A DNA stretch of 64,000 nucleotides from positions 30,568,001 to 30,632,000 of the forward strand of contig NC_087251.1 in NCBI RefSeq assembly GCF_037042905.1, in the 5' to 3' direction. This stretch comes from Lytechinus pictus (lineage: Eukaryota). The notes beneath the pieces were generated by a model, which was given only the letters and a program-made list of their open reading frames with translations, searched no databases and was not told the DNA's origin. A program made the position numbers and the translations under genes. Below are positions 4,901 to 49,980 of this stretch, one piece after another (within the stretch, counting starts at the first letter, position 1; each line of letters opens with the position of its first letter).

Positions 4901-5027
4901 ACTGTGGTCGAAAATCTGAATTATGGAATTGTAATAACTATTATTCAATTGTTTAAAGGGTTTTTTCAGCAAGGTTGCATCATTATTTTGCCTTCCAGAT
5001 ATTATTATTTGGCTTTAATATAAGATC

Positions 5028-5925
5028 ATGGCCAAAATGTCAGAAGAGGTGGATCATCTGCTCCAGCTACCAGCTGATAGGATTACTAATGGAGTTGTCA
5101 TTGATCTACTGCCAAAACTCACAAGAGGAGAGGGAATTACATGGTCACAATTTCATGAAATAGTTCAAAACAAATATGACTCTGAATGTTCTTTAAAGGC
5201 CCTTCAGACCAAGTTAACAAGGATCTATGGAAGGTACATGAAACTAAACAAAACAAAACAAACTAAAGACCAAAATGATGTGAAGGTCAACTATCTGCAA
5301 GAACCTTTCGAGCCCCCAGGAAAAATTGTTCAACCTCCAAAGAATGCTAAAGTAGACCAAGATCACGATGCTGCTAGTCCTAAAAAGAGAAAAGTCTATT
5401 CCAATGATCAAGTAGAAAATTTAGGAAAAGAACTTGAGAGATTCAAGGACATAGTACAAAAAACAGAGAGGGAAGTAATGACTTACAAGAAGAAAGTGAA
5501 GCACCTTGAGAAGGAAATGAAAAAGAATAAAGAAAAGGTTCAGTCTTTCACATCTATATTTGGCAGTGTAAGAGGTGGAAGAAAACGGATTACCGAAACA
5601 ATAAAGCGACTTAAACAATCTAAAAGGGAATGGAGGGTAAACTATCAAATGACAAAGAGTGAAGAAAAACGGAAGACAATTGAAATTACGAGACTTCGAG
5701 CACAATTGCAAGAAGAAAAGAGAAGACGTCAAAGAATTCAAAAGAAATACACAGAGCAAGAAAAAAATCAAGGTCGCCCAGAAGCAACAGGAGATTGAAC
5801 AACTCAAAGAAACTGTTGAAAATCTTCAATATGAAAAAGACAAGTCCCATCATCCTCAACAAATCCAAACCAAGATTGGTCAGTCCTACACCCCTCAGAT
5901 AAGAGAAGCATCCTACTATTTACAG
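5028..5925 (+). pseudogene. DNA transposase gene, first coding exon (basic, coiled-coil N-terminus), frameshifted at the A7 run 5761-5767
   Basis: ORFs 5028-5798 and 5659-5946 join if one A is removed; acceptor ttccag at 4998, donor CAG|GTTGGC at 5925, phase 0. Confidence 0.7.
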
Positions 5926-6921
5926 GTTGGCTTTGAATCAAGTTGATTTATAAAAAATAAAGTGATAGGAATTAAGTCATATAATGTTCATAATAGTCAT
6001 TTCAAAACTCCCCTTGTGACATTTTTAATATGTAAAACAGGTAATTGATCAGATACATGATTGTTTCCTGTGATACAGTACTAAAAACTGATCACAAAGA
6101 CCCAATTTCATAGAATATTGTATTATGGTAAACTTTGCCATTCCGGGGTAACTTGTCTAGAATCTTTGATTTTGATTGGTTGGTGATTAGCATTACCATG
6201 GGATGGCAAAATTACCATTATATTAGCTTGTATTTGTATGCAAAGTTGCCCTTGTCTATGATATAAAAATTACCTACTTCAATTGTTATAAAAATGTAGC
6301 GATTATTGCTTTTACATTTTTCATTAATAGCAAGGATGTTAAAAGGGATTGAAGTTCACTCAAATGCAAATAGAATAATTCAAGAATAGGATCTTTGAAA
6401 CCTTGATAACAATTGGGCAAAAAAGTTATGATGAGCATGTGTATGTTGATAACAGCATAGCTTATTATTTATCAAAAACTTCCTGTCTTCTACAGTTCAA
6501 CTGGTTTCAAGGATTTCATTCCTAATTATTGTTCACAATGAAGTTATTTCTAGAGCATGTTTTATTTCTTCCTATATTTAAACCATTTTAGATAATTTTA
6601 ATTTTGACTCAGTAATCTATAAGCATGTACTCAATTTCTTAAGTTTAAGTAATTTTTACAAAGTTTAATACTGTTTTAAATAACAAAAAGTCTCATTATA
6701 ATTGTTCTGGCAAAAAAGGCAAAGCCCAAATATGCTAACCCCAAATCTAACACTACACATTGATTTTCCTAACATAGTTTTAAACAAACTTCTGTCAAAC
6801 CCTAACCGTAACCAACTGTCATTGGATCAATTGCCACAAGAGCAAATGTCACATCATTCTGATAAAGATTGCATGCAAAATTATTACTGTATCCCTCCCC
6901 ACTTTTATAAATAAATTACAG

Positions 6922-7549
6922 AACCTAGGAGTCGCAGAAGGCAAAGTAAGTGAAGCAATTAGAGTTGTTGCAGAAACTCTATGTGATGTGACCTTCACGA
7001 ATGAGCTACCGTCTCGGCAAACTCAAGGACGCTTTGCTTCTGAGATGAAGGCAATTTGTCGGGACCAGATTGAGGAGCATTTTGTGTCAAAAAGCAATAC
7101 AACATTAAAGTATGATGGGACAACAAAATCGCGAGTTGGTCACCTAGTAGAATGCGAACTAGCTTCTAAAGAGAAAACGTACTTGGTAGGATTATGCCAG
7201 CAAGCTGGAGGAACAAGCGACGAATATATCAGTGCTATCAATGAATCTCTATCGGATGTGAATCCTTTACTGCTTGACGGCATAGCAAATATGATGACGG
7301 ATCGAGCGAGTGTAAATACAGCAATAGACAGGAAACTTTCTGACCTGAAAGGGGAATCTCATATCAACAGCTTCAGATGTGGAATGCACCCTCTGGACAC
7401 CCTTGGTAAGGCATGTGATAATGCATTAAAGGAGAGTGAAAGCCAAGATAAATATCATAGACTTTTCAAGAAGAGAGGGGAGAGTAATACCGCGTGCCTC
7501 ATCAGAAAGGTATCTGATTTATTCCATAATGAGGCAACTGGATGTGGTA
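6922..7549 (+). pseudogene. DDE transposase catalytic exon (hAT-like, CxxH group), truncated
   Basis: Acceptor ttacag at 6921 in frame with the previous exon; motifs LKYDGTT, MMTDRASVN, FRCGMHPLD; transposase-like sequence ends at the junction with another element at 7550. Confidence 0.8.
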
Positions 7550-7900
7550 TAGACCAAAAGCTTCAGTCTCTGTATTTTGGTTGTTCCGCTGAACTACGTT
7601 GGCTCCACTCACCATACATAGACTGAAGGGGATGGGGCCCCGTACCTACAGCCAACGTATAGTGAACTAGCGTTTTATAGATCGCGATTTAAAACTGTTT
7701 TTTAAGCAAAATTGAAAGTTTCATGGTTTCCATGATCAGGGAAATATAAATAACTTAAGTAATTGCATACCTTGGGCCGGAGTTATTGAAAAAAATCCTC
7801 TGGATGATTGAGAAATCTGTCATCTAAGACATTTTCACCTGACCCGTCGGTTTTTCTTGCAAGTTGCCATCTTGAATGACGTCATTATCGTTATTAACTT
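7550..7900 (-). mobile_element. Terminus of a non-autonomous element with subterminal hairpin and CRE/YY1 cassette
   Basis: 7550-7628 is nearly identical to the reverse complement of 57848-57927; 15-bp inverted repeat CTTCAGTCT(C/A)TGTAT; TGACGTCA at 7877-7884. The inner boundary is approximate. Confidence 0.7.
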
Positions 7901-11260: not shown

Positions 11261-12522
11261 TTTTTTTTTTTTTTAATTCTGTTTTTATTATACAAATTGA
11301 AATAAATCACAAAATTTACAAATGATTAATAGGTGATTGCAAATCACATAAACACAATTTAGTTACACAAAAAAATAACAACCATAATAATTATTTAAAA
11401 AAAAACCTACCCACTTATCCTCCCCCACCCCCCCCCCCCCAAAAAAAAAAGGAATGTGGCAATGTGTTTGGTAAATAAAGTAGACAAAGCAAAATATACA
11501 AGCTATGATTATATGAAGTGGTTTCCAAACAACTATTCATAGGATTAAAAAGCACAACTGGTTATCCAAGACGACATAATTATAGAGGTTTTTAAAAGAA
11601 TACTAGTAAGTATATCAAGGTGACTGAGATTGCATGAAAAAATGGGATCTGATGTCTACAACCATATAACCAATACAGTGCAGTATTATTAAAAAGTGGG
11701 ACACTAAACCTGTTATACAAAATATACAGTGTTAGTTATCGTGTAACCTGCTGACATTTTTGACAACCAAATTATAAGGTGAATCGCCACTTCTTAAAGT
11801 GAGCGGGCAACTTATTTTTTTTCTTAGCTATCAAATATTCCAAGTCTTGTTGTTTTTTAACAAATGTTTTAAAAAGAGCAAAACTTGGAGGATTATTCTT
11901 AAATTTACATGTATGAATATAATACTTCAAAAGTAAAAAAAGGTATGAAATGAACTTATCAGTTGAGAGTCCGAACATTTTTTCAAAATTAGAACCATTT
12001 ATTTGAACATTATTTTGGGAAATTTTCGTTAAAAGGGATTGCCAAATAGGAATTACCCTTTCACATTCGCAAAACAGGTGGATAATTGTTTCCTCACTTT
12101 TATCACAGAAAACACAATTGGGTGAATCCTTAGATTTAATCTTATACAAAAAATCATTTAATGCTATGGCTTTATGAAAAATCTTAAAATAGAATGATCT
12201 TAATTTAGTATCAATGGTACAAAAAAAATTTGTGTAGTGTACCTTTTCCCAATCGATAGATACTGGTATTGGTAAACGTTCATCCCAATAAGTGTATCTT
12301 TTGTCAGGTGTGTGTGATCCCCTAAATAAAATGTATGAATGTCTAGGGACTTTTTTATAACTCAACAATTTATGTACAATTGTTTCATGAACACCAATAA
12401 TATCAGGGTCAAAACTCACTAACCATTCTTCCGGGATGCACTTAATTAAAAAATTATATTTCCTTCTGTCTGTTTGGGGGATTCCAAAATCTAACACAAG
12501 CTCTTCAAAGAGTTTGTGACCT
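11261..12522 (-). mobile_element. 5'-truncated L1/Tx1-type LINE (ORF2 C-terminus with zf-RVT-like CxxC..HLFxxC), poly(A) tail, 18-bp TSD
   Basis: Open frame 11772-12522 with CVFCDKSEETIIHLFCEC; AATAAA then poly(A); AGGATAGGTATATAACTT at both 11243-11260 and 12523-12540. Confidence 0.92.
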
Positions 12523-14084
12523 AGGATAGGTATATAACTTAGCAATTGATGCGAAGCGCGAGCACAAAATTGGAAGATTTAGACCTAAAAACAAGACATG
12601 TCTAGTCATGTCTTTTAAATCATCATGGAAAGGATGTCAAATTGCCGATCTTTGTTACTTTAATAATGCTCGCGCAAATTAGCGCGAGCATAAGATTTTT
12701 GTATACGTTTTGAACCGATCAAAAAGGTACCTGTTGAGGACTGCTTATTTCACTTAGCCATGGAGACGTTACATATTTCAACAATAAAATAATGCAAGCG
12801 CGAGCCGATTTTTTTTTTTACACTTCTACATAAAGAATGGAAAATTTTAATCAATTATTGTGACCATGAACAGGATCGTCGTTATAAAACAATTAATGCG
12901 AGCGCGAAGCGCGAGCGGAAAAAAAATCGACATTTAGACCTAAAAAATGGGACACTCTACTCCTGTTTTGTATAATAAGGATGAGTAATAGGGGTTCTTC
13001 CTACATAAAAAATGCGAGCACAAAGCGCTAGCAGAATTTTGTTTTTCAGAAACTGGATAATGGTTGAAATACTAAGAAGTTGAGTATCTAGATAGACATG
13101 CGCTCGCGTGTTTCCGATTTAGGCCTACAATCTAGGCATTCTGAATATATATTTTAACATGAAATTGAAAATCAAAGCGAGCGCGAAGCACGACCTTAAA
13201 ATATTTGACATTCTGATCTGAAAAAGGGGTCAATTTCAGCTCAAGTACTTTGTGAGGTGGATTTGGATCGCACTTAATAAAGAGCTGATAGATTTGACAA
13301 AGGACCGGGACATGAAAGTGATGAATATCTTCCTATTCCTCTTGCTAAGAGCGAGATGAAACAGAAAGGACAATTTAACCATTAAAATTAATATCTGATC
13401 TATAAATGCCTAATGAGGCGCGAAATCTGATGATAACATGGTATGAAAACTGGAAATTTCAAGCACTTTTGTAATTATGAATATGATGTATCAGGTAATA
13501 TTTTTAACCGTTTATGCGAGCGCAAGTCGCGAGCCAAAATTTTTATAAGGCCAAGTCACAAGGATTACCCTCCTTTTAACTGCCATTATCAATATGTTAC
13601 TACATTATAACCATGTATTTACTCTACATATGCATTAAATTATGTGAATCCCATAATCTTGAACCATTAATGCTTCTTTCTTTGACCCATGCTATTTCTG
13701 CCCATATATCTCTTGAGGGTTTTTTTTTTCTCTCTCAAGGTGTGTATGGCACATTGAGGAGTATAGAAGCATGTTGGAGATATTGAAAGGGGTAGAATAA
13801 TTGAATGAAATTCACGAATGGGAGAGATGCCGAGGGGGGGGGGGGGCAAAGATGTTGAGACAGAAAGGGGGTTTGAGAGAAAAGAGGGGAATTAACTATA
13901 AAGGAACAGCAGTCAGGAGAGGGAAAGAGAGAGGGGGGAGGAAATCGAAGGAAGATATGCATACGATAAAAGAGTCCTCGTAGAAAAAGTGAGAGAGAGG
14001 GGGGATATGGAACTGAGAGATCATAATGAGATAAGAAAGAAGTAGTAGTGCATGGGCGGATCTATCGCCAATAGGGGGGGGGGG

Positions 14085-17854: not shown

Positions 17855-18995
17855 AGTGCAGTGACGATAATAAGTTGCAGTTGCACGTGCGCGGAGAATG
17901 AATTAAATTCGGCGGCTGAGTAAAGTCTAGCGAGAAAGGTACGTCACCAGCGAACTTCACGATAGACCACGCCTACTTGCCGAGGTAACCAACGTTGATT
18001 GACGGCCCATTTAGTTTTTTGAGTAGTATGAAAAAGTACAGGCATGTATAAACTTCATTTTAGTTTGAATTCATTAAAAAAAAACATTTTTCTTCTAATA
18101 TAGATGTTTCAAACATATTCCATGTGGAAAACATAATTTTTTAAACATTTATTGCTATATTTTTATCATGAAAAAAGGATTTCTTACGCAACAACAAGTA
18201 TGATATGTGTGGGCAAGAGAACTACCGTTTTAGCCATAAAGCATATTTTTTATGATTTTATTGTGAGCCTACTCAAGGATTTTTGTTTATTTTTTATGAA
18301 TTTCCAGACCAAGTTCAACAGCGCCGTCTCGAGCTTGCAATAACGCATGCGATCGCACGCATTTTTCTCCATAGCGAATACACGCGACGAAACTCTGTGG
18401 ATTTCTCGTGGATTTAACCTCCAAACGTCACTTTCGATACCACATGAAGGTAAGACACTTCATCCCACATTAGTCAATTTACATAAAGAAAACACAGGGC
18501 CTAATTTTTTTCACTAAGATGAACTAATTTGCTGAGGAAAAGCATTTCAATGCTCATTTTTGCCGTCGAGAACAGACGATGGTGGCAATGCACACTGTTT
18601 ACGCACTTGCAATTGGCTTTTCATTTGCCCATAGCAATTTTGCTCAGTGGATCGGCCGACCTTTTGGTAACTCTAATACTAGTGCCCTTACGGTATTGAC
18701 TATAGTTATAGTATTGTCATAAAAGTGATAAAACCAACACCAAATTTGTATGCGGTGTAACAGGCTTAACGTTGGACCTTAACAGTTAAGTTAGTTGTGA
18801 ATTATCACGAATTGATGCAATCATGCATGTGCAGTGCAGTACAGTGTCGCCTCGCACTCGCGCCTGGCAAGCCAGTCCCTCGCTCGCGCTCGAGCCGAGG
18901 GGACCGGGATGGTCGCCGTGGGCGTGGGCAGAACAAGACTCGGGTCTCACTCAAAACGCGGCGCATATACGCGAGTCAATAATCTGTATATTTAC

Positions 18996-19135
18996 CCCAA
19001 ATTTCTCCCAATAGAGTCATCTAATGTTCTCGCAGATATGATTCGAGCAGAACGTTGAAGACTTGACCTCGCTGCAATTCTTGCAGCTAAGGGTAATAAT
19101 CTGGAAAACTTTAATGACCGAAGAGCGGATGCCAT
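18996..19135 (-). CDS. LRPPRC: LRPPRC exon 1 (coding part; mitochondrial presequence-like MASALRSLKFSRLLPLAARIAARSSLQRSARIISART...)
   Basis: ATG in aaaATGG context; Arg/Ser/Ala/Leu-rich and acid-free for 38 aa; resembles the vertebrate LRPPRC start (MAALLRS). Donor GG|GTAAAT is phase 2, matching the acceptor of exon 1713-1930. Absent from the ORF track because it is under 60 aa. Confidence 0.85.
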
Positions 19136-19299
19136 TTTGATTATGTAGCTTCGCGCACGTGCTGTGACAATTCATTTGCTTATAGTACCGGTACGGTAGT
19201 CTGCAGGCACAGACCCTGATTGGAACTTTGAACAAGATTAGTGTGCCTCCACGCAAAGACTAGCACATACAAAACTTGCTGTTCCAATACAGGCCTTCA

Positions 19300-19476
19300 G
19301 TGTGTGTGTGTGTATTTGAGTTTTGTCAGACGTGTATCAATCAGATATGATTATTTACGTCTGGGACCGACCTTTAACGTCACCATCCGAAAGACGTGAC
19401 CAGGGCTCGAACCTCTGCATCAAATTGTAACTTCCCCGCATAGCTTGGATTACAGGCGCACGCCACAACGCCCAGT
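19300..19476 (-). mobile_element. SINE with 7SL/Alu-like head, Deu-like core and (CA)n tail
   Basis: Minus strand reads CTGGGCGTTGTGGCGTGCGCCTGTAATCCAAGCTA..GGTTCGAGCCC..GTCTTTCGGATGGTGACGTTAAAG..(CA)n. Confidence 0.75.
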
Positions 19477-19676
19477 ACACAAGTCATGAGTAGGCTACAA
19501 TTCAGACCCTTTACTCGAGTGAACGGTTTGCTAATTTCTCAGCAATTTTACAATTTCTTCCAGAATCCTTTGGCACATGTTTTTTATTTATACAAACAGA
19601 CACTTAGGTGGTAATTTTATTGGATTCTGTACGAACTCATTTTGAAATCGTCACCACAACTGGCATTTATCTTTAA

Positions 19677-20131
19677 AGGGATGGTCCAGGCTGAAAATAT
19701 TTATATCTAAATGAATAGAGTAAAATTCACAGAGCAAAATGCTGAAAATTTCATCAAAATTGGATAATAAATAATGAAGTTATTGAATTTTAAAATTTAT
19801 CAATATTTTGTGAAAACAGTTATGTGCACATCGTCATGAATATTCATTTTGGTGGGCTGATGATGTCACATCCCCACTTTCCTTTTTCTTATGTTATTAC
19901 ATGAAATAATAAATGTTTCATTTTTTTCATACATGTGTAAATGAGGTGTCTCCATTATGATGAAATAAGTTGCGGCAATAAATAATGCACTTAATCAGTT
20001 ATCAATCCAATTGTTTAATAAACAATAACTTCGTCATTTGTTATCCGATTTTGATCAAATTTTCAGCATTTTGCTTTGTGAATTTTACTCTACTTATTGA
20101 GATATAAATATATCCAGCCTGGACCATCCCT
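19677..20131. mobile_element. TTAA-flanked MITE (Kolobok-like, AGG..CCT termini)
   Basis: TTAA|AGGGATGGTCCAGGCTG ... CAGCCTGGACCATCCCT|TTAA. Confidence 0.85.
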
Positions 20132-20134
20132 TTA

Positions 20135-21058
20135 AGGGATAATCCGGGCTGAAAATATTTATATATGAATAAAGTAAAATTCAAAGAGCAAAATGCTGAA
20201 AATTTCATCAAAATCGGATAACAAATATGAAGTTATTCGCCCGTATTCTGATAGCAGGTTTAACTAATATTAAACTCAGGTTTAAAGTTGTGGTTTAAGT
20301 ATGGATAGCCAATTCTTACATAAATCACTAATGGTAGAGATATCATATTTCAGCTCATTTGGCTCTCAAATCATTCATAATTGTCTAGGAAGTATAAATA
20401 GATTATTGTCTTCACCATCGATGAATCAGGAAAGAGCATAGTAAACATAAGAAAAGTACAACTTGATAAAAAAAAAATTATGATTTTGGCTCATATACTT
20501 AATCCACAACTTTAAACCTGAGTTTAAGTTAAACCTGACTTCAGAATACGGGCCATTGCGTTTTAAAATTTATCAATATTTTGTGAAAACAGTTATATGC
20601 ACATCGTCATGAATATTCATTAGGTGGGCTGATGATGTCATATCCCCACTTTCATATTTCTTTATTATGTTATTACCCCGGTTATTACATGAAATCAAAA
20701 TTCACTTTTTCATACATGTGTAAATGATGTGTCTCCATTATGACGAAACTTTACATGAAATGCACTTGTCAATCCAATTGTTTTAGTTCGGGTAGAAAAT
20801 TTTGAATAAACCGCCAATAAACCAGCTAATTTCATATGACAAAATACAAAAGAACAAGTGGGATATGACATCATCAGATCACCTAATGAATATTCATGAA
20901 GACATGCCTAGAATTGTTCCAACGGAATAATGCAAATCTTTAAAATTCAATAACTTTGTTATTTGTTATCTGATTTTGATCAAATTTTCAGCATTTTGCT
21001 CTGTGAATTACTCCATATTTTGAGATATAAATATCTCCAGCCTAGCTGGACCATCCCT
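20135..21058. mobile_element. Second copy of the same TTAA MITE, carrying a nested insertion
   Basis: Colinear with 19677-20131; ends GGACCATCCCT|TTAA. Confidence 0.8.
20238..20554. mobile_element. PIF/Harbinger-like MITE, 3-bp TSD ATT
   Basis: TIR GCCCGTATTCTGA..CAGGTTTAAC / GTTAAACCTGACTTCAGAATACGGGCC; interrupts the host sequence GAAGTTATTG. Confidence 0.8.
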
Positions 21059-21062
21059 TTAA

Positions 21063-21676
21063 AGGTCAAGTCCACCCCAGCAAAAAGTTGATTTGATTAA
21101 ATAGAGAAAAATCAAACTAGAATAACGCTGAAAATTTCATCAAAATCGGATGTAAAATAAGAAAGTTATGACATTTTAAAGTTTCGCTTATTTTTTCACC
21201 AAAAAAAATAAATGCACAACTCAGTGACATGCAAATGAGTCAGTCGATGATGCCCATCACTCACTATTTCTTTTGCTTTTTTATTGTTTGAATTATACAA
21301 TACAGTATTTCATTTTTTATAGATTTGACCATAGGCTATAGGAACCGACTTGACTGAACCATATAGCATTAAACAAGGCTAATTCCACATGTTCAGTGAG
21401 GAATTAATCACTGTTTCACTTGACAATGAGGAGAAAATTAGAATATTTCACATTTTATATAAGAAAATACAAAAGAAATAGTGAGTCATCAGCTAGTCTC
21501 CTCATTAGCATACCGACCAAGATGTGCATATAACTGTTTTGTGAAATTAACCAAAACTTTAAAATGTCATAGTAACTTTCTTATCTTACTTCCGATTTTG
21601 ATGAGATTTTAGTGTTATGCTTGTTGGATTTTTCTCTTTTTATTCAAATCAATTTTTGTTGGGGTGGACTTGTCCT
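21063..21676. mobile_element. TTAA-flanked MITE (Kolobok-like), second family
   Basis: TTAA|AGGTCAAGTCCACCCC ... GGGGTGGACTTGTCCT|TTAA. Confidence 0.85.
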
Positions 21677-23195
21677 TTAAGGGTTAATGTGCAGCCTATA
21701 CTGAAGGCCCAAGTTTTTTATGTGCTAGTCTTTGCGTGGAGACACACTTGTTGAGCAAAGTTTCAATCAGGGTCTGTGCCTGCAGAATATAGTGTACTCC
21801 CTACGTAGTGGTATAGTGCAGTGGAGTGAACCATGATCTATTGATCTGAATATATAAGTGCCAGTGGTGCACCTATAATATCAAATGGTGTGAGCTCGAA
21901 ATTTTCAGCAATTTTTTTGTCAAACAGGGTGCTACTATATTATATTTCTCGCTAAAACAGGAAAACTCGAATCGCGAGCAGAATAATTTTGTGCAGATCA
22001 CCCCGAGCGGATTGTTATCTCAGTCAACAGGGAATGTGAGCGTGAAACGCACAAGCGAAACTTATTCCGACAGTAATTTCTAGAGGGTTTATCTACCATT
22101 ATAACACCTATATACCAGATTCCAGGGAGTATTTACTGCCTATGGTGAATATATAAAATACACGTAGCACCCCCAAGGAAAATCCAATGCCAGTGGGGCG
22201 GCACCTCCAGGCACACACTGAGCTATAGAGTGAACCACTGATCTATTGATCTGGATAGATCAGTGGTGTGAGTTAAGCATATATATAGGCCCCTTAGGCC
22301 CCTTTTTGACTTTCTAATTTACTCCATTGGCTCTCTTTTATTAGATAAGCAGTTTTCAGCAGCTTATTTTTGCCATTCATATATATAATCAAAAGGTACA
22401 AGCTAAAAATTTCAGCACTTTTTTTGTCAAAAAGGGTGTACGGTATTTCTCGCTAAAACAAAATACATGCAGGCAGGAAACTCGATATACCCTCGAATAT
22501 AGCGAGCAGATCGATGTGCAGATCAAGTCCGCCGAGCTGATTATCTTAGTCAACAGGGAAGTGAGCGCGAAAAGCAAGCAAAATTTTTATTCTGATAATT
22601 ATTACCAGAGAGTTTATCTATTTTGCATGGCATTTATATTAGAATTTAGGTCTAGATCGATCTATTCCCCCCCCCCCCATCACCTTTCTTCCTCCTCTTT
22701 TTATCATTCTCCCCTCCCAATTCCCTTTTTCTTACTTTTTTCTCTTCCCCTCTTTTATCGCCGCCAATAGGGGGTGAGCCGCTTCGTCCCCCCCCCCCCC
22801 CCCCCGATCCGCCTATACCCCTATATACACTGTCGGTGCCAGCTTGTTTGGTAGGTGTCTGCGTCTGTAGACTAGGTAATGTACATCAGGGTCTGGGACA
22901 AAACAGACTAATTTAGTCAACATGCGCTGACAAGCCCATGCTTGTGGCGAGGCGCCGAGGCTAGCGGAGCGAACCGTGTACTTTGGCCAGAAGTTTAGGG
23001 TGTGATTGCGACGCGACGCCGATGTGCGCCATCAGCATCCCTGCTCCTTCGCCCGCTCTCTCAGTCTCAGATCGCGACTGATCTGACTGAATCACAATTA
23101 TAATTCGCAAAGGTACTACTAGACGTCTACTAGTACTACTAAACTAGCTACTGGAAATCCTGTGAATCTTTGTAATTTGTTGCAAAAGCAAGACG

Positions 23196-26500: not shown

Positions 26501-28942
26501 TGTTAATACAGTAGGCCATTTTGAAAAGCAAAGCCGAATGACAACTCACCAATGTCAATGATAGGTTACTAGACTCAAATTATTTTATCACAGAATTGTG
26601 ATAACTGTAGGGGAAACATGTGCATTAGAAATTGCACATAGTGGTAGTCATAATTGACCCCTATACATGCAACTGTTTCCCGACCGTCGCGTTCATTTTT
26701 TTTCCATACCTGGTACGGTACCATGTGTGTGGAAATACGTGGTACAGGAAAAAAGACGCAACTTCGGAATTTGAAACTGCGCTCCTCGCTATTTTCAAGG
26801 CTTATTCATGATTTTGAGTGTGGATTTTGGATGATTTTTAAATGGTAAGGCAAGGCTCCACATTAACTTTTTTGGTGGTGGCCCGTTCGGGCCATCAAAA
26901 CCTTCAAATAATTTTTTTTGGCGGAGCTCGAGCATATGGCGCTAGTGGTTGGTTGAGTTGTTATCACTCGGCAATAATTTCGGGGGCGACATTCAGATTT
27001 TATGTCGCCCCCGAAAGCATGATTTTGGGTGATTTCGAGGGCGACTTTAGGCATTTCCGGGGCGAATTCGCCCGCCGCCCCCGTGTATTTTTTTCACTGT
27101 TTCATATCACTGACCTGCTTAAGGATAAGGCAAGGGTAATCTCCACGGAGCCACGGGCAGGATGCCATTGCTAATTGCTCTATGCGCACCAAGTATTTTG
27201 GAGACAACAATGTTGCTCAAAAATACTTTTCTTTAAGGTTTTGAGCCCAAACTTATGTAAATGGGCTAAAAGTATATTTACCCCCTGCACGTACTAATGT
27301 ATTTATTCAAATAAATCGAGAAAAATGAGAAAAATAATTGAGAGCAGGAGCGTTTACTTACAGTCTGTTATTGTCACCATCTTGCCGTCTTTGTTATCGT
27401 AGCCTAGCTATAAGACGCGTATAGAGGGTGACAATATCATGACATGATTCATGAGCAGTGCCAACTTAGATAATAAGAATACTTGCATCGGCCGATAAAT
27501 ATGATGAATCGTAAAAAACTTTAAATGCTGAAAATTTCATCAAAATCGGATAACAAATATTGAAATAACGAAGTTATTGAATTTTAAAGTTTATCAATAT
27601 TCTGTGAAAACAGTTATATGCACATGGTCATGAATATTCATTAGAACTGTTTCACCGGAAAATTCAAATCTGAACATTCAACAACTTCATTATTTGTTAC
27701 CTGATTTTGATCAAATTTTCAGCATATTGCTCTGAATTTTACACTATTGAGACATAAATATCTCCAGCCTGGACCATCCCTTTTAGAGCCAAGTTATATG
27801 ATGGTTATAGCTGTAATGGAATCTGACAGTGTCAAACAATCAAGCATTTGTTCCGAAGAAAAAGAGAAAATAAGCCAAACATTGCCAATCTTATTTTTCC
27901 ACACATGGAGTACTAACAGAGAACAAGGTTATGCCGTAACCTTGTTCATTGAATAAGTGCGTTTGATCTTGAACTTCAGATTTTCCAACAGGAGACTGTA
28001 ATGATCATGCTTCATATTATTAGGCTAACATTAAACATGAACATTTTTTCTTTAATTTCACCAAAAAAAATGTTTCAATTGTCATTGTTGCTTGTATTTT
28101 AAACAAAATTAGAGAAAATTAGGGAACTTTTGCCATATTTATAAATTTCTGAAACAATCTGACTTGATGCCGATTTCGGGGACGGGGGGGGGGGGGGACT
28201 ACACCATCTTTGAAGCTGATTAACTCTTAACATGCCATACACACTACTAACCCAACGCCACAGTGCTAATCCGATGCTAATCCCCTGTGCCAGCCACAAA
28301 ACCCCCCTGTGCCACATTGATTTTAGGATCGCGAGCCGTATTCACTCCTTTCAATAGTCATGATTACAATTGCTTGTAACTCTCTAACGATTAGTTTATC
28401 CACAAAATATTGTGTAGTAAAGTTGTAGGAAATTTCATACCACTTATAATGGTGTCCTCATTATATGGATTGGTTATTATCTTTACCGCTAAAATATGAG
28501 TTGTATCAAGTAGTTCCATTTTGTGGAGTGTTTTGTATGGATCAAAAAACCTAGGTCTCTTCCCTCTCGGAGGCGGAGCCATATTTTGTAAAAAATGTAG
28601 AAATACTCGAAAAAGTCGAATGTAAACCGCGTGAGTAAGTTGATCTGTCAGAAAGCAGAGTTCGCACTGCACACAATAGTGCTAATTACGGCGTGCATGC
28701 GATGCGCAATACAATGCAAAACGGCGTAACAATGATTGTAATTCCGAATGTGCGCAGTCATGCACGAAGCAGGCGAGGGTAGGAAACAATGCAAGCACAA
28801 AGCAATCAATAGTAGGCGTGCGAGCACGAGTGTGGCATGTAATAGTAGGATACGTAGCGTGCACAAAGCACTCAATGAGTTAAGGTGCATGGATGCTTAA
28901 CAATCTTCATGATCTTATTTTTTTAATTTTCTTTAATTTCAG

Positions 28943-29092: not shown

Positions 29093-29556
29093 GGCCCGTA
29101 TTCTGAAGTCAGGTTTAACTGTACATGTATGTTGTGCTTTCATTTGTTGTAATTGTTATCTTTGAAATTGTATTTTGCTTTATTATCCCTTGCCTAGTAT
29201 TTTTAGATATTGTTTTATCATGTTAAATGTATGATTTTATTTTGGATGCAAATAAAAGGCCATATCAGCCAATCAATCAACAAAAAAACTTAGACCACGC
29301 TCTAACTCCGTACTAAAATTTTGGGAAGCCAAGAAATAAAAAATCAAGTTTATATTTTATATTTCTTATGTTTAATATTTTGTTTCCTTTTGCTGTCATA
29401 ATGAAGAAAATACTTCAGTTATCATTCCCAGACAATTATGAACAATTTGGGTGTCATATGAGTTAATAAATTGAATGTTTACTGTTAGGGATTCATGCCC
29501 CAATTGGCTCTCCATACTTAAACCACAACTTTCAACCCGACTTCAGAATACTGGCC
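29093..29556. mobile_element. PIF/Harbinger-like MITE (TIR family shared with 20238-20554), TSD CAT
   Basis: CAT|GGCCCGTATTCTGAAGTC ... GACTTCAGAATACTGGCC|CAT. Confidence 0.8.
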
Positions 29557-29830
29557 CATGAGTTTAATTTTCATACTTTCATTCTTATAATGAAATCATT
29601 CAGAGTTTAAAGAAAAGAATTTACTTTTCAAGGTCAAAGTGCAATTTACAGATTAATTTTATATTTTGAAACTGGATTTTCTTATCCGTGCTATCACATT
29701 GTAAAAGCTGATGTACATATTGTTCAGCTCACTTTCATAAGAAAATGTAATAAGGTGACATCATTGTTTTACCCAATCAACAGTTGTTCTAAGGAGATTG
29801 TTTCCTTGTGCATTACAATTTACAAGTAAT

Positions 29831-30372
29831 CAGCCCACCTCAACAAAAAAGTTGGTTTGAATAAAAAGAGAAAAATTAAACAAGCATGACGCTGAAAATT
29901 TCATTAGAATCAGTTGGAAAATAGAAAAATACAACATTTTAAAGTTTTGCTTAGTTTCACAAAAACAGTTATATTCACATCCTGTTTGGTATGCAAATGG
30001 GGAGACGGATGACATCATCCACTCGCTATTTATTTTCTTTTGTATTTCATAACATGAAATATTGTCATTTTCTCATTGTCAAGTGAAAAATGTTCCTTCC
30101 TGAACTTCTTGAATTACCAATGTTTTAACATGTGGTTCAAACAAGAGGGCCCTCATTTTTAAACCGTTGAAAATAGAAATATTGTGTAAGTTAAACAATA
30201 AAAGACAAAAGAATTAGTGAGAGAGGGACATCATCGACTCTATTTCCATATCACTGAGTTGTGCATATAATTGTTTTGTGAAAAATAAGCAAAACTTTAA
30301 AAATGTCCCAAGTTTCCTGATTTACATTTGATTTTGATTCAAATCAACTTCTTTCTGGGATGGAACTGACCT
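29831..30372. mobile_element. Degenerate Kolobok-like MITE related to 21063-21676
   Basis: Shared internal sequence; right end GACCT|TTAA; left end decayed. Confidence 0.65.
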
Positions 30373-30601
30373 TTAATTCTTCTTAAAGAGATCATCTATT
30401 TTTTACATGTACAGGTGTTTTTCCATGCTCGCGATACATCAAACACTGCATTTGCTAATTCAGTATATCAGCACATCTTTGAAAGTACCCATATGTAGAT
30501 AATTTTTTTTACCATACCTCACATCTCAGTTGAACACTTCATCATAAATTGCAGATATACTAATATACATAAAGTACTCTTTCCTGTTTCCCAACTTACA
30601 G

Positions 30602-30798
30602 GGGGCTTCCCAAGTTTGAGATGGGATGATCAACAAAGGATCAAGGAGACATTGTCTGGAAAGAAGCCTGGAGGATCGCTCAAAAGTGCAGATCCCGATG
30701 AAGGAGGAGAAAGTAACACAACACTGACTCAGTTTACTGTGGGTTATGCTAGTTCTGGACGAGCAAAATGTCTTCGTTGTGGAGAAAAGATTCCAGAG
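30602..30798 (+). CDS. PARP1: PARP1 exon 3 (end of Zn1, start of Zn2)
   Basis: GFPSLRWDDQQRIK...GYASSGRAKCLRCGEKI; phase 1 to 0. Confidence 0.95.
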
Positions 30799-30941
30799 GT
30801 AAGCTTCCTAGACAGAGTTTGAAATCAGTGAAGACATCATGCACGTACATGTATTTTCTTCTAGATAACACAATGTATTTGTTTTTCTTTATTTTGTTTT
30901 TAACATGCAGTGTGTTCATGTCATACTGGTAGTAATGATAG

Positions 30942-31778
30942 CAGGGTGCTACATAAGCACTTGCCCGATTGCCCGGGGGAAGTAAAAGTTAGAGTTTGGC
31001 AAGTGTTTTGAAGTAAAGACCAAAACTACTTGCCCAAATTGGGCAAGCAAAATTCTCATAGTAGAATTACCAAAATAAGGGTCAATATGATATGATATTG
31101 ACCCTAATTTTGGTCATGGCAGGCAAGATAAAATCACTTTGGAAAAAGAAATGCAATAACAAGGTAGATCAGTTCATGTCAAAAGAGAGAAAAAGTTAAA
31201 TAGTTTTTAAAACCGCAAAACTTTCTTTTGAAGAGGTAAAACTTTTTTTGAAGGATTTCTTTGGGCAAGTGAAATAGATTTTTGGGCAGGTATATTCCAA
31301 ATATTTAAAAATTTGCTTGCCCGACCAGGCAAGTGCTTCTAAAAAGTTTTATACAACTCATAAGATTGTTCTGATTGGTCCAAATCGGATCACATGATAT
31401 TCAGTGAATTGCACTATTGCATCCAAAATGCACTATCCTGCACTCTGACGTCATACCAAAAGTACTATCCTGCACTCTGACGTCAGAGTGCAGGATAGTG
31501 CAAGGTCTGGAATTATCTATAATTTAGATCAAATATAGCTATCGGGACAACTAATTAACATGGGGGAGGAGGGGGCTGTATAAAACAAACAATGCACGCA
31601 TTCTTGTGCATAGAGGACCTAAATAATGAACTCTGTGCTCGACTCGCCAAATGGATATACTGCACTCGGTCCTGCAGACCTCGGTGCGGTATATCCATTG
31701 GCTCTTCTCGCACATTGTTCATTATTTGGCCCTGCATGCACGCGCATACGTGCCTTATGTGTATAATGTAGCACCCTG
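30942..31778. mobile_element. Non-autonomous DNA transposon, TIR CAGGGTGCTACAT, 6-bp TSD TGATAG, with a nested insert at about 31350-31765
   Basis: 13-bp perfect TIR and flanking TGATAG seen directly; internal CTTGCCC/GGGCAAG subrepeats. Confidence 0.8.
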
Positions 31779-32062
31779 TGATAGTCTTGAATTTTATTAT
31801 TTTCTTGGAAAACTTTACTGATGAGTATGTCAGTGACAGGTTTTTTTTTTGGTGGAAGTGTTCTTGAAACCATCATTGTACAAAACTTTGAGATCTATTC
31901 ATCAAAAATTTATCATTTGAATTAGCAACAAGGACTGGCAAGTGTAGGTTTGTTGGACTAAAAAATGTTGTTTAGCACTTTTCTTTTAATTATTCTTGAT
32001 TATGATTGTCTACTTTGTGATCCAATGCTGTTATTATCCGTCTTGTACCCATTCAATATAAG

Positions 32063-32262
32063 ACGACAGTTCGAATCGCCTTCATGGAACCGGTAGAAGA
32101 GTATCAGCCAGTACCCCGCTGGCATCATGTGGATTGCTTTGTTGATGCGAAGTATATGGAGAATGATCTTAGTGAATGGCCTCCTAACGGTACAGCCAGT
32201 ATGCTCACAAGCTTCGATCGTCTGAAGGCTAAAGACCAGAAGATGCTAGAAGAGAAATTCAA
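32063..32262 (+). CDS. PARP1: PARP1 exon 4 (Zn2)
   Basis: TTVRIAFM..PRWHHVDCF..FDRLKAKDQKML; phase 0 to 2. Confidence 0.9.
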
Positions 32263-32807
32263 GTATGTATCCCATGATGTTGCCCTCAAAGTTCATTGAA
32301 AAACACACTGTTTTATAAAAGGAATGTATCAAATCAGATGTAGAATATTAAACTTTTGGCAGTGAGTTATTGAATTTTTCTCTTATTTTCTCTGAGGAAC
32401 TGGTATACAAAACACAAATATTTATAGAAACAAGGAAGCGGTTCATCCAAACCTCAATGTTATATTGAACGCGATATGAAAAAAAAAAAAAGTAATGATA
32501 GTGAGTCATGGATTTCAATTTTTCTGTGAGTGTCGCTAAAGTGCTTAATTGAGGGAGTCTATGATGCCACTACTCAATATATCTTTTCTATTTGATTATA
32601 TGAAATTTAAGATTAAACACTTTTCCTCCAATTTGTTTGACCCCTCCTGGAACATCGATAAGGATGAGATCCTTATTGTAACTAATTGTAGATGTAGTCA
32701 CTAGCGATTAAATATTGACTAACACTGTTTTTGCAACAAGCAATGAAAGAAGTCTTTTTTTCTTATACATTGAATTTTAATCAATATTATCCCGTTTTGT
32801 TTTACAG

Positions 32808-32916
32808 GAAGGCATTGCCAAAGACTAAAGGCAAAGGAAAAAAGAAAGGAAAGACAGGTCCTCCTCCAGAGAAGAAAGCTGCTCCAAAGCTCAGTAAACT
32901 AGATCAAGATCTCAAG
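32808..32916 (+). CDS. PARP1: PARP1 exon 5 (basic NLS-like linker)
   Basis: KALPKTKGKGKKKGKTGPPPEKK..DLK; phase 2 to 0; canonical splice sites. Confidence 0.9.
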
Positions 32917-33270
32917 GTGAAAATTTTTTTCCCTGTAAAGTTGTTAGTTGAGAGATCATCAGTTTTAAATGTTTATTTTCATTTAGAATAAATAATACAG
33001 ACTTCATATACTAATATGATATGAAAATGAATCATAAAGAATTTAAGTATCTTAAAAATTGAAAGTACATTAATTGCATTATAACACAAGACAAGCTTTA
33101 AGGCCATGTGATTTTCATTCTTTACAATGCCCAACTTGTCTCCAGAATGTTTAATAAATATTTTCATCTTAAAGTTAATATCTACAATTAAAGATAATAT
33201 ATCATTAAAGTTATAGTACTATACATCATACTTTTTGATCTGTATTTTTTATGAAATTTTGGCACCTCAG

Positions 33271-33387
33271 ACCCAGAACGACCATCTTTGGGCAATCCGT
33301 GACCAGCTTTACCGATGGGTTAAGAATAATGGACTGAAAGATATACTTGAAGCTAATGATCAGGAAGTCCCTCCAGGAGAAAGTAAG
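33271..33387 (+). CDS. PARP1: PARP1 exon 6 (Zn3/PADR1 N-terminal part)
   Basis: TQNDHLWAIRDQL..LKDILEANDQEVPPGESK; phase 0 to 0. Confidence 0.93.
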
Positions 33388-34064
33388 GTAAGAAAAGAGT
33401 CCTACTTCATCAAGAGTTGTGGTAAAAGAAATGCAAGTTTACTATCGGCTAATAAAATTGATACTGTTGCTGCAAATGTGTTACTATAACAACTTTTATG
33501 AAACAAGACTGTGTGCTCATTTATACCTCATTCTCACTGCCATGTGATCCGTTATGAATGCCACAATTGACTTTTCGTAGCTGATAACAAAAAATATTGA
33601 ACCTTTCTAAAACAAAATCTACGATCAATACTGTTGCCACGGTTGATCTGTTATGATCAATTCAATTAAGACCACAGTTTCCATTGTGGCATGAATCGAT
33701 ACAGTGTGAACAAGGTATTAGGATTTATTAAAAATAATACAGAATAGATAAGAGTCAAGTAAATGAAAGTTTTAATTGTTGTTAACATGATATTGTTCTG
33801 AAAAGAAGAGAGAGTAATTTCTATATCAATGGAATATATCATACCTACTACCACTACTTGGGAGGGGGGGTATGCCATCATAATGTATTAATGTTTTAAG
33901 AGGTTCTTATACCATTTACTGAATTTTACAAAGTGGAGGGCGGGGGTAAGGGTGATTTCTGCGAGTGTCAGGTGAATTTGTGCACCTCCATTTCATTGGA
34001 GCAGGACCATATTTACAAAACTTTTCAACTTCTACTTGAGCTTAATAATTCTGTCATCCTTCAG

Positions 34065-34279
34065 CTTCTGGACAGTGTGGCCGATGGCATGATGTTTGGT
34101 GCCCTTGAGAGTTGTCCCGAATGCAAGAATGGCCAGCTGGTTGTGAGTTCCTCCGGTCTGACCTTCAAGTGTACCGGTAACCTGACATCTTGGACCAAGT
34201 GTCAATACAGGAGCAAGGATGTCCAAAGGAGCAAGACGTGGCACATTCCGGAATATCTCAAGGAAGATATTGATTATTT
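34065..34279 (+). CDS. PARP1: PARP1 exon 7 (Zn3/PADR1)
   Basis: LLDSVADGMMFGALESCPECKNGQL..CTGNLTSWTKC; phase 0 to 2. Confidence 0.96.
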
Positions 34280-34601
34280 GTAAGTCAGTAAACTGTTCAA
34301 CCCTCTAGCATCAGATTGTGCAGCTGATTAATGACTTGTGGCAAATCAGGAACTCAGCAGGTAGCTGTGCTATATGTATCTTAATTAGAATTTCCAGTAA
34401 CTTAAAAATCAGACGACTGTATTTAATTTATAGGGAATGAAATCTGCACTAAAACAATCAAAATCTGACAGCCAGCTTTGACGAATTTTCCCTATTTCTT
34501 GAATACAGTACACATTAGCCCATATTCTGAAATCGGGATTTACATTCAACTCTGGTCTATCTATCGATAGCCAATTATAACAAAAATCCATAACAGTACT
34601 G

Positions 34602-34783
34602 GTGGGTGTTTCATAAAGCTGTTCATAAGTTAAGAGCAACTTAAAGAACGACTGGTGATCCTTTCTTGTGGAAAATGCGGGGGGAAATGGTATATTCATT
34701 GACAATGGTTACGCGTGTAAGAAAGGTTCACCAGTTGTTCTTAAAGTCGCTCTTAAGTTACGAACAGCTTTATGAAACGGCCC
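34602..34783. mobile_element. Harbinger-like palindromic MITE, TSD CTG
   Basis: GTTTCATAAAGCTGTTC..AAG / ..GAACAGCTTTATGAAAC arms of about 60 bp. Confidence 0.75.
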
Positions 34784-35052
34784 CTGGTTTGCTTTAAAAA
34801 CTTCATGAAGACAACCTAATAGCCAATCACAATCAATTGAGGCCTCAATTCTGTAAGCTGCAATTTATTTTGCATTTAAACATAAAACATAGTATTATCA
34901 TGTCAACCTTTGTAGTGTATTTACTTCAAACATGCACAAGGTATCTATTATGGATGTGGCCAAGTGTTCTTCATATAGTTCTGAATTTTAATTTGTAGGA
35001 AATCCTTGCAGATATTTCTGTAAAGTAATGATCAATTGTTTTTGTTATGCAG

Positions 35053-35154
35053 GAAAAGCTTCAAATTTGTTGCCTATAACAAGGGTAAGAGATTGTTTCC
35101 TGAAGAGGAGGAAGAGGCATCAGGAAGCCAAGAGGGAGCAGGAGACGGAAAAAG
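35053..35154 (+). CDS. PARP1: PARP1 exon 8 (Zn3-BRCT linker)
   Basis: KSFKFVAYNKGKRLFPEEEEE..; phase 2 to 2, bridges exons 7 and 9. Confidence 0.88.
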
Positions 35155-35718
35155 GTTTGTTTCCATTTAATTCTCCTTTCGCTATTAAAGCACCCATGGG
35201 AAACATTTCATGATATAATAGTGATTTTCACTGAAAACTGTTATAAGCTACTGAAATCCTTGGATTTGATTGGCTCAGAATGAAGTACTCTTTGAAAATC
35301 ACTGACCTGATGCTCCTGAGACCACCCTCGTAATTAATGGCCATATTGATCTATGTTACATTGGTCCTTTTGCCTCATTTTGTTTTGATAGAGATTTCAT
35401 ATGTCCAGTAGACTGGTTGCTCAGTACTTACCTGTGGTTCTTTCAACCAGTTTCCTCATCCCATTGGGAGCATGAAACAGACTTTTGTTGAAAGCTACTG
35501 AAATCCTTGCATCTGATTGGCAAAAATCACTAACTATTTCATGAAACGCTCCCTTGTAGGGCTGTGCATGAGTGATTGTTGGGAGTTTGGTAACATTTCA
35601 TGATCTTGAATGTTCTACCACTACGCAGACAGAACCCCCCCCCCCCCCCATGTGCAGCAAAACATATTTGGTGTTGGGATGAATAAAAAATTGTGAAACT
35701 TATCTTATTCTTGTACAG

Positions 35719-35885
35719 GAAGTTAGCCAAGAAACCAGAAGAGAAAGCCCTTCACAACTGTACTATCGTACTTCATGGTAAATTATCCAAGAGCAATAAA
35801 GAACTGAGGACAGTCATTCAGGGTCTTGGAGGTGATGTCGCTACTAAGATCACACCGGAAACAGCATGTGTTATTAGCACTGAAG
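35719..35885 (+). CDS. PARP1: PARP1 exon 9 (BRCT)
   Basis: IVLHGKLSKSNKELRTVIQGLGGDV..ACVISTE; phase 2 to 1. Confidence 0.93.
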
Positions 35886-36605
35886 GTATGTTTTGTGAAA
35901 ATTGAGTTTGAATAGAATGGATTCACATTGTGCAGCTAAGTAGCATCACTGCACTGCATATACCATGAGCAGGTATAAAATCAAATAAAATAAAAAGCTA
36001 AAGTAAGGCCTGAGCTGATCTATATTTCAAATAGATCTAGTCCTGTTCCTCATTCCTCCATAAGCCTAATGTTCCATCTATTTTGGTTGTTTGGTCTACG
36101 TTGGACTATGCATACAAGACAGGTGTTGTAGAAAACAAATATTCAATGTTTTATCATTCATGTGACCATTCAAATATTACATTCGGTGCAGTCTATTCAC
36201 TCGGTGCAGTCTATTCAACTCTGTTTCGCGTTGTTGAATAGACTTTCAACTTGTACGCTAATGTATTATTTGGTACAATCGCACTCATAAACGTGTGATT
36301 ATTTGTATACTCTTTGTAGAGACATGTATGAACACCATCCATGAATTCAAAGTCTTTCAAAATTTTATACAGTTCCTGAAATCCATTTATTGAAAAAATT
36401 GGATTATGACTGGTAGGACATCATCGGAATCCAGGAAGTCATTTTTTTTTTTTTTTTTTTTAAACTTTACTCAGCGCTACTTTTTTACAGCGGCTTTTAT
36501 TTCAATTTGTAAAGTTTTATAAGGATGAGGAGATAGGGATCTTGAGGAGAAACAGATTTTCTGACCAAGACTTAACCATTTTTTCTTTGCTTGCTTCAAT
36601 TTCAG

Positions 36606-36751
36606 CTGAAGTAAAGAAGATGAACAAGAAGATGAAGGAAGCCAAAAGCAATGATGTCCATGTTGTTTCAGAAGATTTCCTAGATGCTGTTAAGAATGGA
36701 GGAGCAGCTCTTATGATCACTCAACACAGTATCTGTAATTGGGGATCAGAT
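36606..36751 (+). CDS. PARP1: PARP1 exon 10 (BRCT)
   Basis: EVKKMNKKMKEAKSNDVHVVSEDFLDAV..HSICNWG; phase 1 to 0. Confidence 0.95.
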
Positions 36752-37241
36752 GTAAGATAGAGTATTTAAATGTCTTATTTACCTAGGGTAGCCACTTCAG
36801 CTATAATGATATGTTTTCCCCAGCAGTTCTTCCTCTCAACATTCCCTTAATTGGTCCTTTGACCCTCATTCTCAAGGGGTTTTATCCTTTTCAGAGTTTG
36901 AAGAAGAGTAACTCGTCTCAAACTCAAAAGTGATTTGCTCTAAGAAAAACAGGTTTTAATAACTAGCTTTTAATTGGGCTAATTTAACGTTTTTCGTATA
37001 ATATAATAGATAGGTGTACAAAATCTTTTGAATCCAATTCAATAAACAATATTTTATATGATAAACAGAATATTTTTATTTTATTAACAGAGCTTTTCAA
37101 TTCGATTTGTTTTATTTAGAAGTAAAGTGTGCAAGGAATTTCAAATCTGGCAGTATTCGAACCAAGAATCTGTCTAGTTTTGTACACTTTTAATTCTTGG
37201 GCATTGATATCTCAATACTCAATCACTTGTTATATTTACAG

Positions 37242-48867: not shown

Positions 48868-49980
48868 CTATAACCAAACATCATTATAACTTGATTGTCT
48901 GTTAAATGTTCTCCTAGAAGCACTTCCATTTTTAATGCTGTTCGCTCTCAAAAGTCTCCTCCTGTTGTATCTGCAGCAGAGAATATCCCAACACTCGTGC
49001 CGAAAACTAGGATTTATCATAGAATAAAGAAGTGGATTTAAAACTGAGTTGAGATACGGTAGAATATTCCTGCAAATGTACACAATCAGCACCTTCATGA
49101 CTTGTGGGTCCTCGTGCACAAAACTGTGATATATTTCAAGGATGGTCCTCGGTAACCAGCATATGATAAAAACAGCAATGACCAGAAGGAGACGCTTGGC
49201 GACGATCAAGCGTGTCTGGTTCATGACCCTACACCGTCCAAGTTGGTGCTGCGCATGGCGGTTTCGTTTCGATAGGACAGAGAAGATACGGAGGTAGTTC
49301 ATTCCTATGACAGTCAATGGTAGGATGAGAGTGATAGACGCCTGGCCTATGGCAAGGAAGATCCTCATTGGAGAACCCACCTTCACCGTGAACCGACACC
49401 CTGGAGCGCCGTAGTAGAACACCGCTGGGAACGCCACCAGGACGGACATGACCCAGATGCAGATGATGATCTTCCGCACCATCCTGGAGTGTATGCGCAT
49501 GTCGAAGGGTCGGCAGAGGGAGTAGAAGCGATCGATGGAGATCCCAACTAGGATCCATGATGAACAGATCAGAGTTTGGTGCCAGATCACCATTATCGCC
49601 TTACACTCAGAAGCTGTGATCCTACGATGCATGGCCATGATCTCAAAGTATATATGCATTGGCACAACAATGATACAGACTGTGCAGTCAGTTATGGCTA
49701 AGCTACAAAGAAAGTGATTTGCTGTTGACTGCTTACGTTTGGTGTTTCTCAGGTACACTAGAATCACCAACATGTTGCCAACTGTTCCAGTGACAAGGAA
49801 AACGGACATGAGCACAAGGTCGACTACAGAATGTATTGCACTTGGTTGAGGAAAGTAGAAAGGGTCAATAGTTGGCTCTTCTTCAGATCCATTTAATAAT
49901 AAACTATTGTTTTGAGTCCCACTATAAATATCATATGATAGAGATTCATAATACCAACTTTCTGTCCCTGTGGAGGCCAT
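48868..49980 (-). CDS. Class A (rhodopsin-like) GPCR, peptide-receptor-like, about 370 aa, single coding exon
   Basis: Seven hydrophobic segments with GN, LAITD, C(TM3), DRF, W(TM4), FIICWLP, NSVLNPLLY and helix 8; N-terminal NxS sites. Start chosen at agaATGg (49980); an in-frame ATG in weaker context lies at 50007. Confidence 0.93.
   Translation of the reverse strand: MASTGTESWYYESLSYDIYSGTQNNSLLLNGSEEEPTIDPFYFPQPSAIHSVVDLVLMSVFLVTGTVGNMLVILVYLRNTKRKQSTANHFLCSLAITDCTVCIIVVPMHIYFEIMAMHRRITASECKAIMVIWHQTLICSSWILVGISIDRFYSLCRPFDMRIHSRMVRKIIICIWVMSVLVAFPAVFYYGAPGCRFTVKVGSPMRIFLAIGQASITLILPLTVIGMNYLRIFSVLSKRNRHAQHQLGRCRVMNQTRLIVAKRLLLVIAVFIICWLPRTILEIYHSFVHEDPQVMKVLIVYICRNILPYLNSVLNPLLYSMINPSFRHECWDILCCRYNRRRLLRANSIKNGSASRRTFNRQSSYNDVWL

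Follow-up and report, generated by a model that had tools for sequence, protein, structure and literature searches.

The stretch of DNA analysed here, a 64-kb window from the genome of Lytechinus pictus, a sea urchin, contains at positions 19300–19476 a short interspersed element (SINE) in minus-strand orientation, running from 19476 to 19300 (Table 1). The element consists of three modules within 177 nt and agrees in length and structure with the definition of a SINE, being shorter than 1 kb, non-tandem and built of head, body and tail. The definition used in SINEBase includes these properties and further asks that 60 nt or more be at least 60% identical to tRNA, 5S or 7SL RNA (PMC3531059). 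The original prediction had placed a 7SL head, a B box, a Deu-like segment and a CA tail in this interval, and all four parts were recovered; the strand, which it had left unstated, is minus. No run of four T's was present within the element, the nearest one being located 26 nt beyond the tail. When the whole element was folded, its stability was like that of shuffled sequences (z -0.18).

Table 1. Parts of the 7SL-headed element and the first downstream T run, with positions in the 64-kb window.
Feature	Position	Strand	Description or basis
Whole element	19300..19476	-	177 nt, leading from the 7SL-type head through the linker, B box, Inv-size Deu piece and 3' hairpin to the (AC)7 tail
Head, 7SL 5' Alu domain (nt 1-47; SRP-model helices 2, 3 and 4)	19430..19476	-	Rfam SRP alignment and pairing
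Predicted Pol III A box, where the 7SL A box sits	19463..19473	-	7/9 fixed positions of the A-box consensus
Linker of 16 nt, head-body junction inside or adjoining	19414..19429	-	4/16 against the SRP consensus
tRNA-type B box, start of homology with tRNA-headed relatives	19403..19413	-	9/9 fixed positions of a tRNA-type consensus
5' piece of Deu/Nin domain, Inv/alpha size	19364..19397	-	L003 33/34 and L004 34/34 identical
3' hairpin (7 + 6 pairs), predicted to be recognised by a partner LINE	19327..19363	-	Folding and shuffles
A/C-rich end plus (AC)7 tail (19313-19300)	19300..19326	-	Read from the sequence
First downstream TTTT run, possible Pol III stop	19271..19274	-	Sequence scan

Elsewhere in the window, exons of a PARP1-like gene were detected on the plus strand (30499–36760), with zf-PARP in two pieces, below the curated cut-off, and a PADR1 zinc ribbon. 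A single-exon gene of a rhodopsin-family GPCR is located on the minus strand (48868–50100); its product is 98% identical to a Lytechinus variegatus protein over 92% of the length and 70% identical to one of Diadema, and orthologue-like matches with inconsistent names were found across echinoderms and in a hemichordate. Two open frames on the plus strand (5019–5798 and 6784–7626, of 259 and 280 amino acids) had no Pfam match and are possibly remains of a DNA transposon. The segment 7550–7660 is repeated in inverted orientation at 57817–57927. A C-terminal fragment of a LINE reverse transcriptase with zf-RVT is present on the minus strand (11772–12578), and it had no match to the body profile or the 3' end of the SINE. 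AT-rich inverted repeats of MITE-like type form a cluster with many cross matches (19671–21670, 27523–27794 and 29362–30338). The Rfam microRNA matches near 20025–20240 were rejected as hairpins of an inverted-repeat element unrelated to the SINE. Also a weak match to the tRNA model was detected on the plus strand at 1240–1309 (score 25.8 bits, cut-off 29, E-value 0.46); it could be another worn SINE head or chance.

The Metazoa_SRP model of Rfam (RF00017) matched positions 19476–19389 with 31.7 bits and an E-value of 8.8e-7 when a query of 311 bases was used. In the whole 64-kb window, searched against 4227 families, the same match had an E-value of 1.8e-4 and was the sole SRP match among the 12 matches at E ≤ 1. 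The score was below the gathering score of 70, with 223 of the 299 model positions skipped, and it remained under the cut-off because most of the 299-position model is absent from the element. Counted on the printed alignment, nt 1–47 of the element were identical to the SRP consensus in 35 of 44 positions, and nt 48–63 in only 4 of 16. Over nt 1–63 the identity was 39 of 63 columns (62%), carried by nt 1–47, and this value is borderline in relation to the identity given in the SINEBase definition. The alignment of the head to the 5' Alu domain of 7SL RNA had been described as gap-free, which holds for nt 1–30; thereafter the alignment includes three inserted bases, and the likeness to 7SL RNA stops at nt 47. 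Compared by eye, the element agreed with the head of the hagfish element SINE1-1_EBu in 28 of its first 30 nt, and the predicted A box was equal in 8 of 10 positions to both the human and the hagfish 7SL A box quoted in PMC7245038.

Rfam gave no tRNA or 5S match on the element at E ≤ 10, and ARAGORN with default settings found no tRNA genes in the window. The 5' head is nearer to 7SL RNA than to tRNA or 5S RNA, as the head of a SINE1 element is, and the 7SL reading of the original prediction survived both the SRP-model check and the comparison with tRNA.

When the head was paired in the register of the SRP model, 12 of the 14 pairs were canonical, a number that 43 of 20,000 dinucleotide shuffles also attained. 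The pairing is weak evidence when taken alone, because 78 of the 127,906 47-mers of the window reach 12 pairs in the same register. In two of the three pairs of the closing helix, both bases differ from the Rfam consensus, with the pairing retained. The first four bases of the head are repeated at the 3' junction and may be target sequence or microhomology; if they are target sequence, the argument from the closing helix would be weaker. The free-energy fold of the head included helices 3 and 4 in the same register as the SRP model and lacked the closing helix (-8.0 kcal/mol in the SRP register versus -14.1), and the stability of the fold was like that of shuffles (z 0.18).

The body following the head is not 7SL. 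The 3' helix of the SRP model aligned to it with many broken pairs, and the stretch included in this part of the SRP match is also common to two tRNA-headed loci of metagenome contigs, L003 and L004. Both internal Pol III boxes of SINEs are present, 60 nt apart, the B box with 9/9 and the A box with 7/9 of the fixed positions of the consensus motifs. The internal B box noticed earlier is thus found to be of tRNA type, and it differs from the 7SL B boxes quoted in PMC7245038.

The Deu-like motif occurred once in the window and in none of 100 shuffles. Compared by eye, the segment of about 34 nt fits the opening row of Fig. S4 in PMC7245038, an alignment in which the full Deu domain is 131–142 nt long. 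The segment covers the start of the domain only, and the full central domain of Deu/Nin elements is not present. Of the Deu-like core proposed originally, therefore, the start of the domain (ca. 34 nt) stands while the full domain of 131–142 nt does not. The 5' part of Deu/Nin has been termed Inv/alpha and listed for echinoderms (PMC5804259, PMC4758252), and the position and size of the piece fit the description of Inv/alpha. The core thus corresponds to the 5' part of Deu/Nin, and the element is not a Deu-SINE.

Just before the tail there is a hairpin of 13 pairs, which was missed in the original prediction. Its folding energy was -13.0 kcal/mol (z -4.65, reached by 0/1000 shuffles) for 19320–19366, the tightest of three stretches folded, and the z-values for the two wider stretches were about -2.9 to -3.0. 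All 13 pairs are invariant across the element, L003 and L004, and hence do not provide covariation support; the differences among the three sequences are situated in the loop and bulge. The element does not end in the poly(A) that goes with L1 in the Alu/B1/Urop type, its tail being (AC)7 after the hairpin, at 19313–19300, in agreement with the (CA)n tail noted earlier.

The scan of metagenome contigs with the core motif produced four loci (L001–L004), of which L003 and L004 include the whole body, L001 is of full Deu type and L002 has 26 nt only. The body motifs were not found in viral contigs or in prokaryote genomes (0 in both). In BLASTN comparisons to the element, L003 was 91% identical over 111 nt (E 3.7e-42) and L004 88% over 94 nt. 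In the body at 19413–19313, L003 was identical to the element in 91 and L004 in 90 of the 101 positions, and within the hairpin both were identical to it in 36 of 37. The BLASTN match of L003 starts at 19413, exactly where the B box begins. The head of the element was identical to the heads of L003 and L004 in 21 of 47 positions each, which is approximately the level of the flanks (11/24). Also the linker of 16 nt showed no likeness to the same stretch of L003 and L004, as 2532 and 2581 of 5000 shuffles, respectively, scored equally.

Neither the L003 nor the L004 head had an SRP match or a tRNA match in Rfam, L003 only producing a weak match to the tRNA-like mascRNA (E 2.2). Compared to the consensus motifs, the A boxes had 8/9 (L003) and 9/9 (L004) and the B boxes 9/9 (L003) and 7/9 (L004) of the fixed positions, and the spacing of the boxes in L003 is 44 nt, as in tRNA. 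These box motifs point to a tRNA origin of both heads. The two loci thus have the body, hairpin and end of the element, but tRNA-type heads without an SRP match. The tail of L003 is of the same type as that of the element, while L004 has a (CAAC)n tail. The near identity of the body with L003 and L004 may mean a related urchin, strong constraint or horizontal spread. The flanks of the two loci had no match in the window. The L004 element (178–372) combines the body with a longer head (69 nt between the boxes), a hairpin loop enlarged by a 9-nt duplication and the (CAAC)n tail, and represents a third head and tail combination on one body. L001 (189–470) has a tRNA-type head and, by eye, a full-length body of Deu/Nin type; it aligned to the element over 23 nt only, and the body profile matched it only at positions 18–49. 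The body motifs were not found in paper texts, nor as a SINE sequence in the supplements searched.

No second copy of the element was detected in the window with BLASTN, nhmmer or the body profile of three sequences, and the exact pattern of head, B box and core was found at 0 loci in metagenome contigs and 0 in viral contigs. The element is assigned to a family on the basis of the shared body, and this status is to be read as a prediction. Among the sequencing-run matches listed, 20 of the 24 runs contained part of 18300–20500, and none of them was RNA.

No target-site duplication longer than 4 nt was detected at the junctions of the element. The 3' flank is formed by a short repeat (19197–19293), of which an inverted second copy without the SINE is located at 21694–21789 (89% over 82 nt), and this repeat adjoining the SINE tail may be the insertion target. 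The likeness to the repeat at 21694–21789 is clear at the 3' flank and weak at the 5' flank (25/3000 random 50-mers). The surroundings of the element are AT-rich DNA amid repeats that are present also elsewhere in the window.

The element very probably belongs to a SINE family that gained its 7SL head through a head swap, because its body is near-identical to that of the tRNA-headed L003 and L004 and the homology starts at the B box. The claim that a SINE body of an invertebrate carries a head of 7SL type is upheld by the SRP match without a tRNA match on the head, the sea-urchin host and the body shared with SINE-like loci, and an Alu-like element is likely to have arisen independently in an invertebrate. 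We infer that the source of the head was the urchin's own 7SL gene. In a tRNA-type SINE with this body, the 5' half would have been replaced by the 5' domain of 7SL RNA, most likely through a template switch or a recombination event immediately upstream of the B box. The product would be transcribed by Pol III from a hybrid promoter, with the A box from 7SL and the B box left from the old tRNA head, and the head would bind SRP9/14 and carry the RNA to ribosomes in the way the 46-nt 5' domain of Alu does (PMC11760393).

Copying would take place by target-primed reverse transcription, with the enzyme of an L2/CR1-type LINE recognising the 3' hairpin and the microsatellite tail. A partner of this type is suggested because the hairpin and the microsatellite tail occur together with the lack of a long duplication. 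LINEs of L2/CR1 type generally leave short or no target duplications. Stem-loops at the 3' end mark pairs of the stringent type, and the urchin SINEs tabulated in PMC3747384 are tRNA-headed with L2 or CR1 partners. With the body profile, no end of a partner LINE matching the hairpin or body was found in the window. The more specific reading, that this is an active sea-urchin SINE family which arose when exactly the minimal SRP9/14-binding 5' domain of 7SL was grafted onto a tRNA-type SINE, with the tRNA B box kept as the second promoter half, is given about an even chance.

The same parts could have been joined only once, if a LINE enzyme switched onto 7SL RNA during the insertion of a tRNA-type SINE and left a chimeric retrocopy, a single dead copy. 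This agrees with the single copy in the window and with the exact pattern of head plus body being found at 0 loci of the metagenome and viral contigs, and one-round chimeras of such kind are known (PMC11760393). The promoter boxes and the exact 5' domain have nevertheless been kept, as expected under selection for further rounds, and a one-off event is considered improbable. Even less probable is that the element is an ordinary tRNA-derived SINE, the 5' half of which has drifted to a chance likeness to 7SL. Besides the tRNA-type B box, ARAGORN with relaxed settings gave a tRNA-Pro-like shape over the head, but with the same settings also eight calls in four loci of about 550 nt, while the default settings gave none and Rfam no tRNA at E ≤ 10. 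Six of the seven pairs of an acceptor stem can be formed with the stretch following the B box, but this number was reached in 3 of 20 registers and is hence unspecific, and the T stem has 3/5 pairs only. On these grounds (default ARAGORN, Rfam, the acceptor and the T-stem pairs) the cloverleaf reading of the head was rejected. Moreover, drift does not sit well with the 35/44 identity to the SRP consensus and the E-value of 1.8e-4 on the whole window, nor with a head that is unalignable to the heads of the relatives sharing the body.

The lowest probability of all is given to a head from outside the urchin, either as contamination of the assembly by a vertebrate element of Alu type or because a ready-made element was gained horizontally. 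The hagfish SINE1 has a similar head, but 7SL 5' ends are conserved across animals and the likeness is therefore expected if the head is of host origin. Two metagenome contigs have nearly the same body, and it has been proposed that Nin-domain SINEs moved horizontally between lancelet and urchin (PMC5804259). The element is, however, without an evident 3' 7SL segment, without the poly(A) of Alu and without the RTE parts of the hagfish element, and it has an AT-rich setting among the repeats of the window, which also includes a Lytechinus gene.

The head swap, which is preferred here, can be compared to systems already described. The treatments of 7SL-derived SINEs in PMC7245038 and PMC13023118 name supraprimates, hagfish and shrew moles only, and PMC10886601 agrees. 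In the elements described in the first two of these sources, 7SL has a central deletion and both of its ends are kept. No invertebrate case was found in the literature searched. The view that 7SL SINEs are known mainly from primates, rodents and tree shrews has to be widened to hagfish (PMC7245038) and shrew moles (PMC13023118). In repeat databases such as Repbase and Dfam, the body may bear the name of a SINE2 family of urchins, and the element itself could be listed there under a tRNA label.

The closest comparison is the element SINE1-1_EBu, described from the hagfish Eptatretus burgeri (Kojima 2020, PMC7245038), which also has a 7SL head on an older tRNA-derived SINE and has been modelled as the same kind of chimera, with the same proposed route. 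Both have a microsatellite tail and a partner other than L1, the latter being inferred for the urchin element. SINE1-1_EBu, as described in the same source, includes 96 nt of the 5' end of 7SL together with the 3' end, i.e. the whole Alu domain and the 7SL B box, whereas the urchin element has 47 nt only and a B box of tRNA type. The hagfish element further has bipartite RTE parts and target duplications of ~17 bp, in contrast to no duplication >4 nt here. In comparison to that description, the Inv-size Deu piece, the 3' hairpin and the invertebrate host are features of the urchin element. The Alu, FLAM, B1 and Tu elements of supraprimates and Urop of shrew moles have the 5' Alu domain of 7SL with the A box at their 5' end (PMC7245038, PMC13023118), as the urchin element has. 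They are, as these sources present them, made of centrally deleted 7SL with poly(A) and use L1, while the urchin element has no evident 3' 7SL segment, a non-7SL body and (AC)n. The structure typical of Alu/B1/Urop/Ebu1-1, with both 7SL segments and a B box in the 7SL region, is not that of the element.

With the Inv/alpha and Deu/Nin SINEs, such as the urchin families SINE2-3_SP and SINE2-8_SP/2-6/2-4b, the element shares the 5' start of Deu/Nin directly after the B box (PMC5804259, PMC4758252, PMC3747384). According to their descriptions, on which the comparison is based, these families are tRNA-headed, and the element is without the rest of the Deu domain. On structural grounds the element is assigned to work like a SINE1 and its head is that of a SINE1, but it is neither of the Alu/B1/Urop/Ebu structural type nor a full Deu-SINE.

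In the experiments of Moldovan et al. (PMC11760393), the 46 nt of the minimal Alu 5' domains SA46/AY46 bound SRP9/14 as well as the 86-nt domain. These 46 nt supported about 86% of Alu activity; without a B box SA46 is not transcribed again and moves once. The boundary of the urchin head (nt 46–47) corresponds to this laboratory minimum for SRP9/14 binding and retrotransposition, and by analogy binding is predicted for the element. Where SA46 is without a B box, the element would restore one from its tRNA-derived part.

Why 7SL heads are rare among SINEs, although Alu is the most successful of them, is an open question. The three independent origins of 7SL-SINEs presented in PMC7245038 and PMC13023118 are all vertebrate and all include both halves of the Alu domain. 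If the more specific reading given above is true, the element would be the first 7SL-derived SINE of an invertebrate and the first in which the Alu domain is without its 3' half. A family of invertebrates with nt 1–47 only would show evolution reaching the minimum that deletion mapping of Alu revealed in HeLa cells (PMC11760393). It would also be a natural test of whether a SINE profits from SRP9/14-mediated targeting to ribosomes even when its L2/CR1 partner reads a hairpin, the tRNA-headed parent sharing the body providing a built-in control. As tRNA-headed elements with nearly the same body exist, giving two heads on one body and tail, the worth of the 7SL head would be directly measurable.
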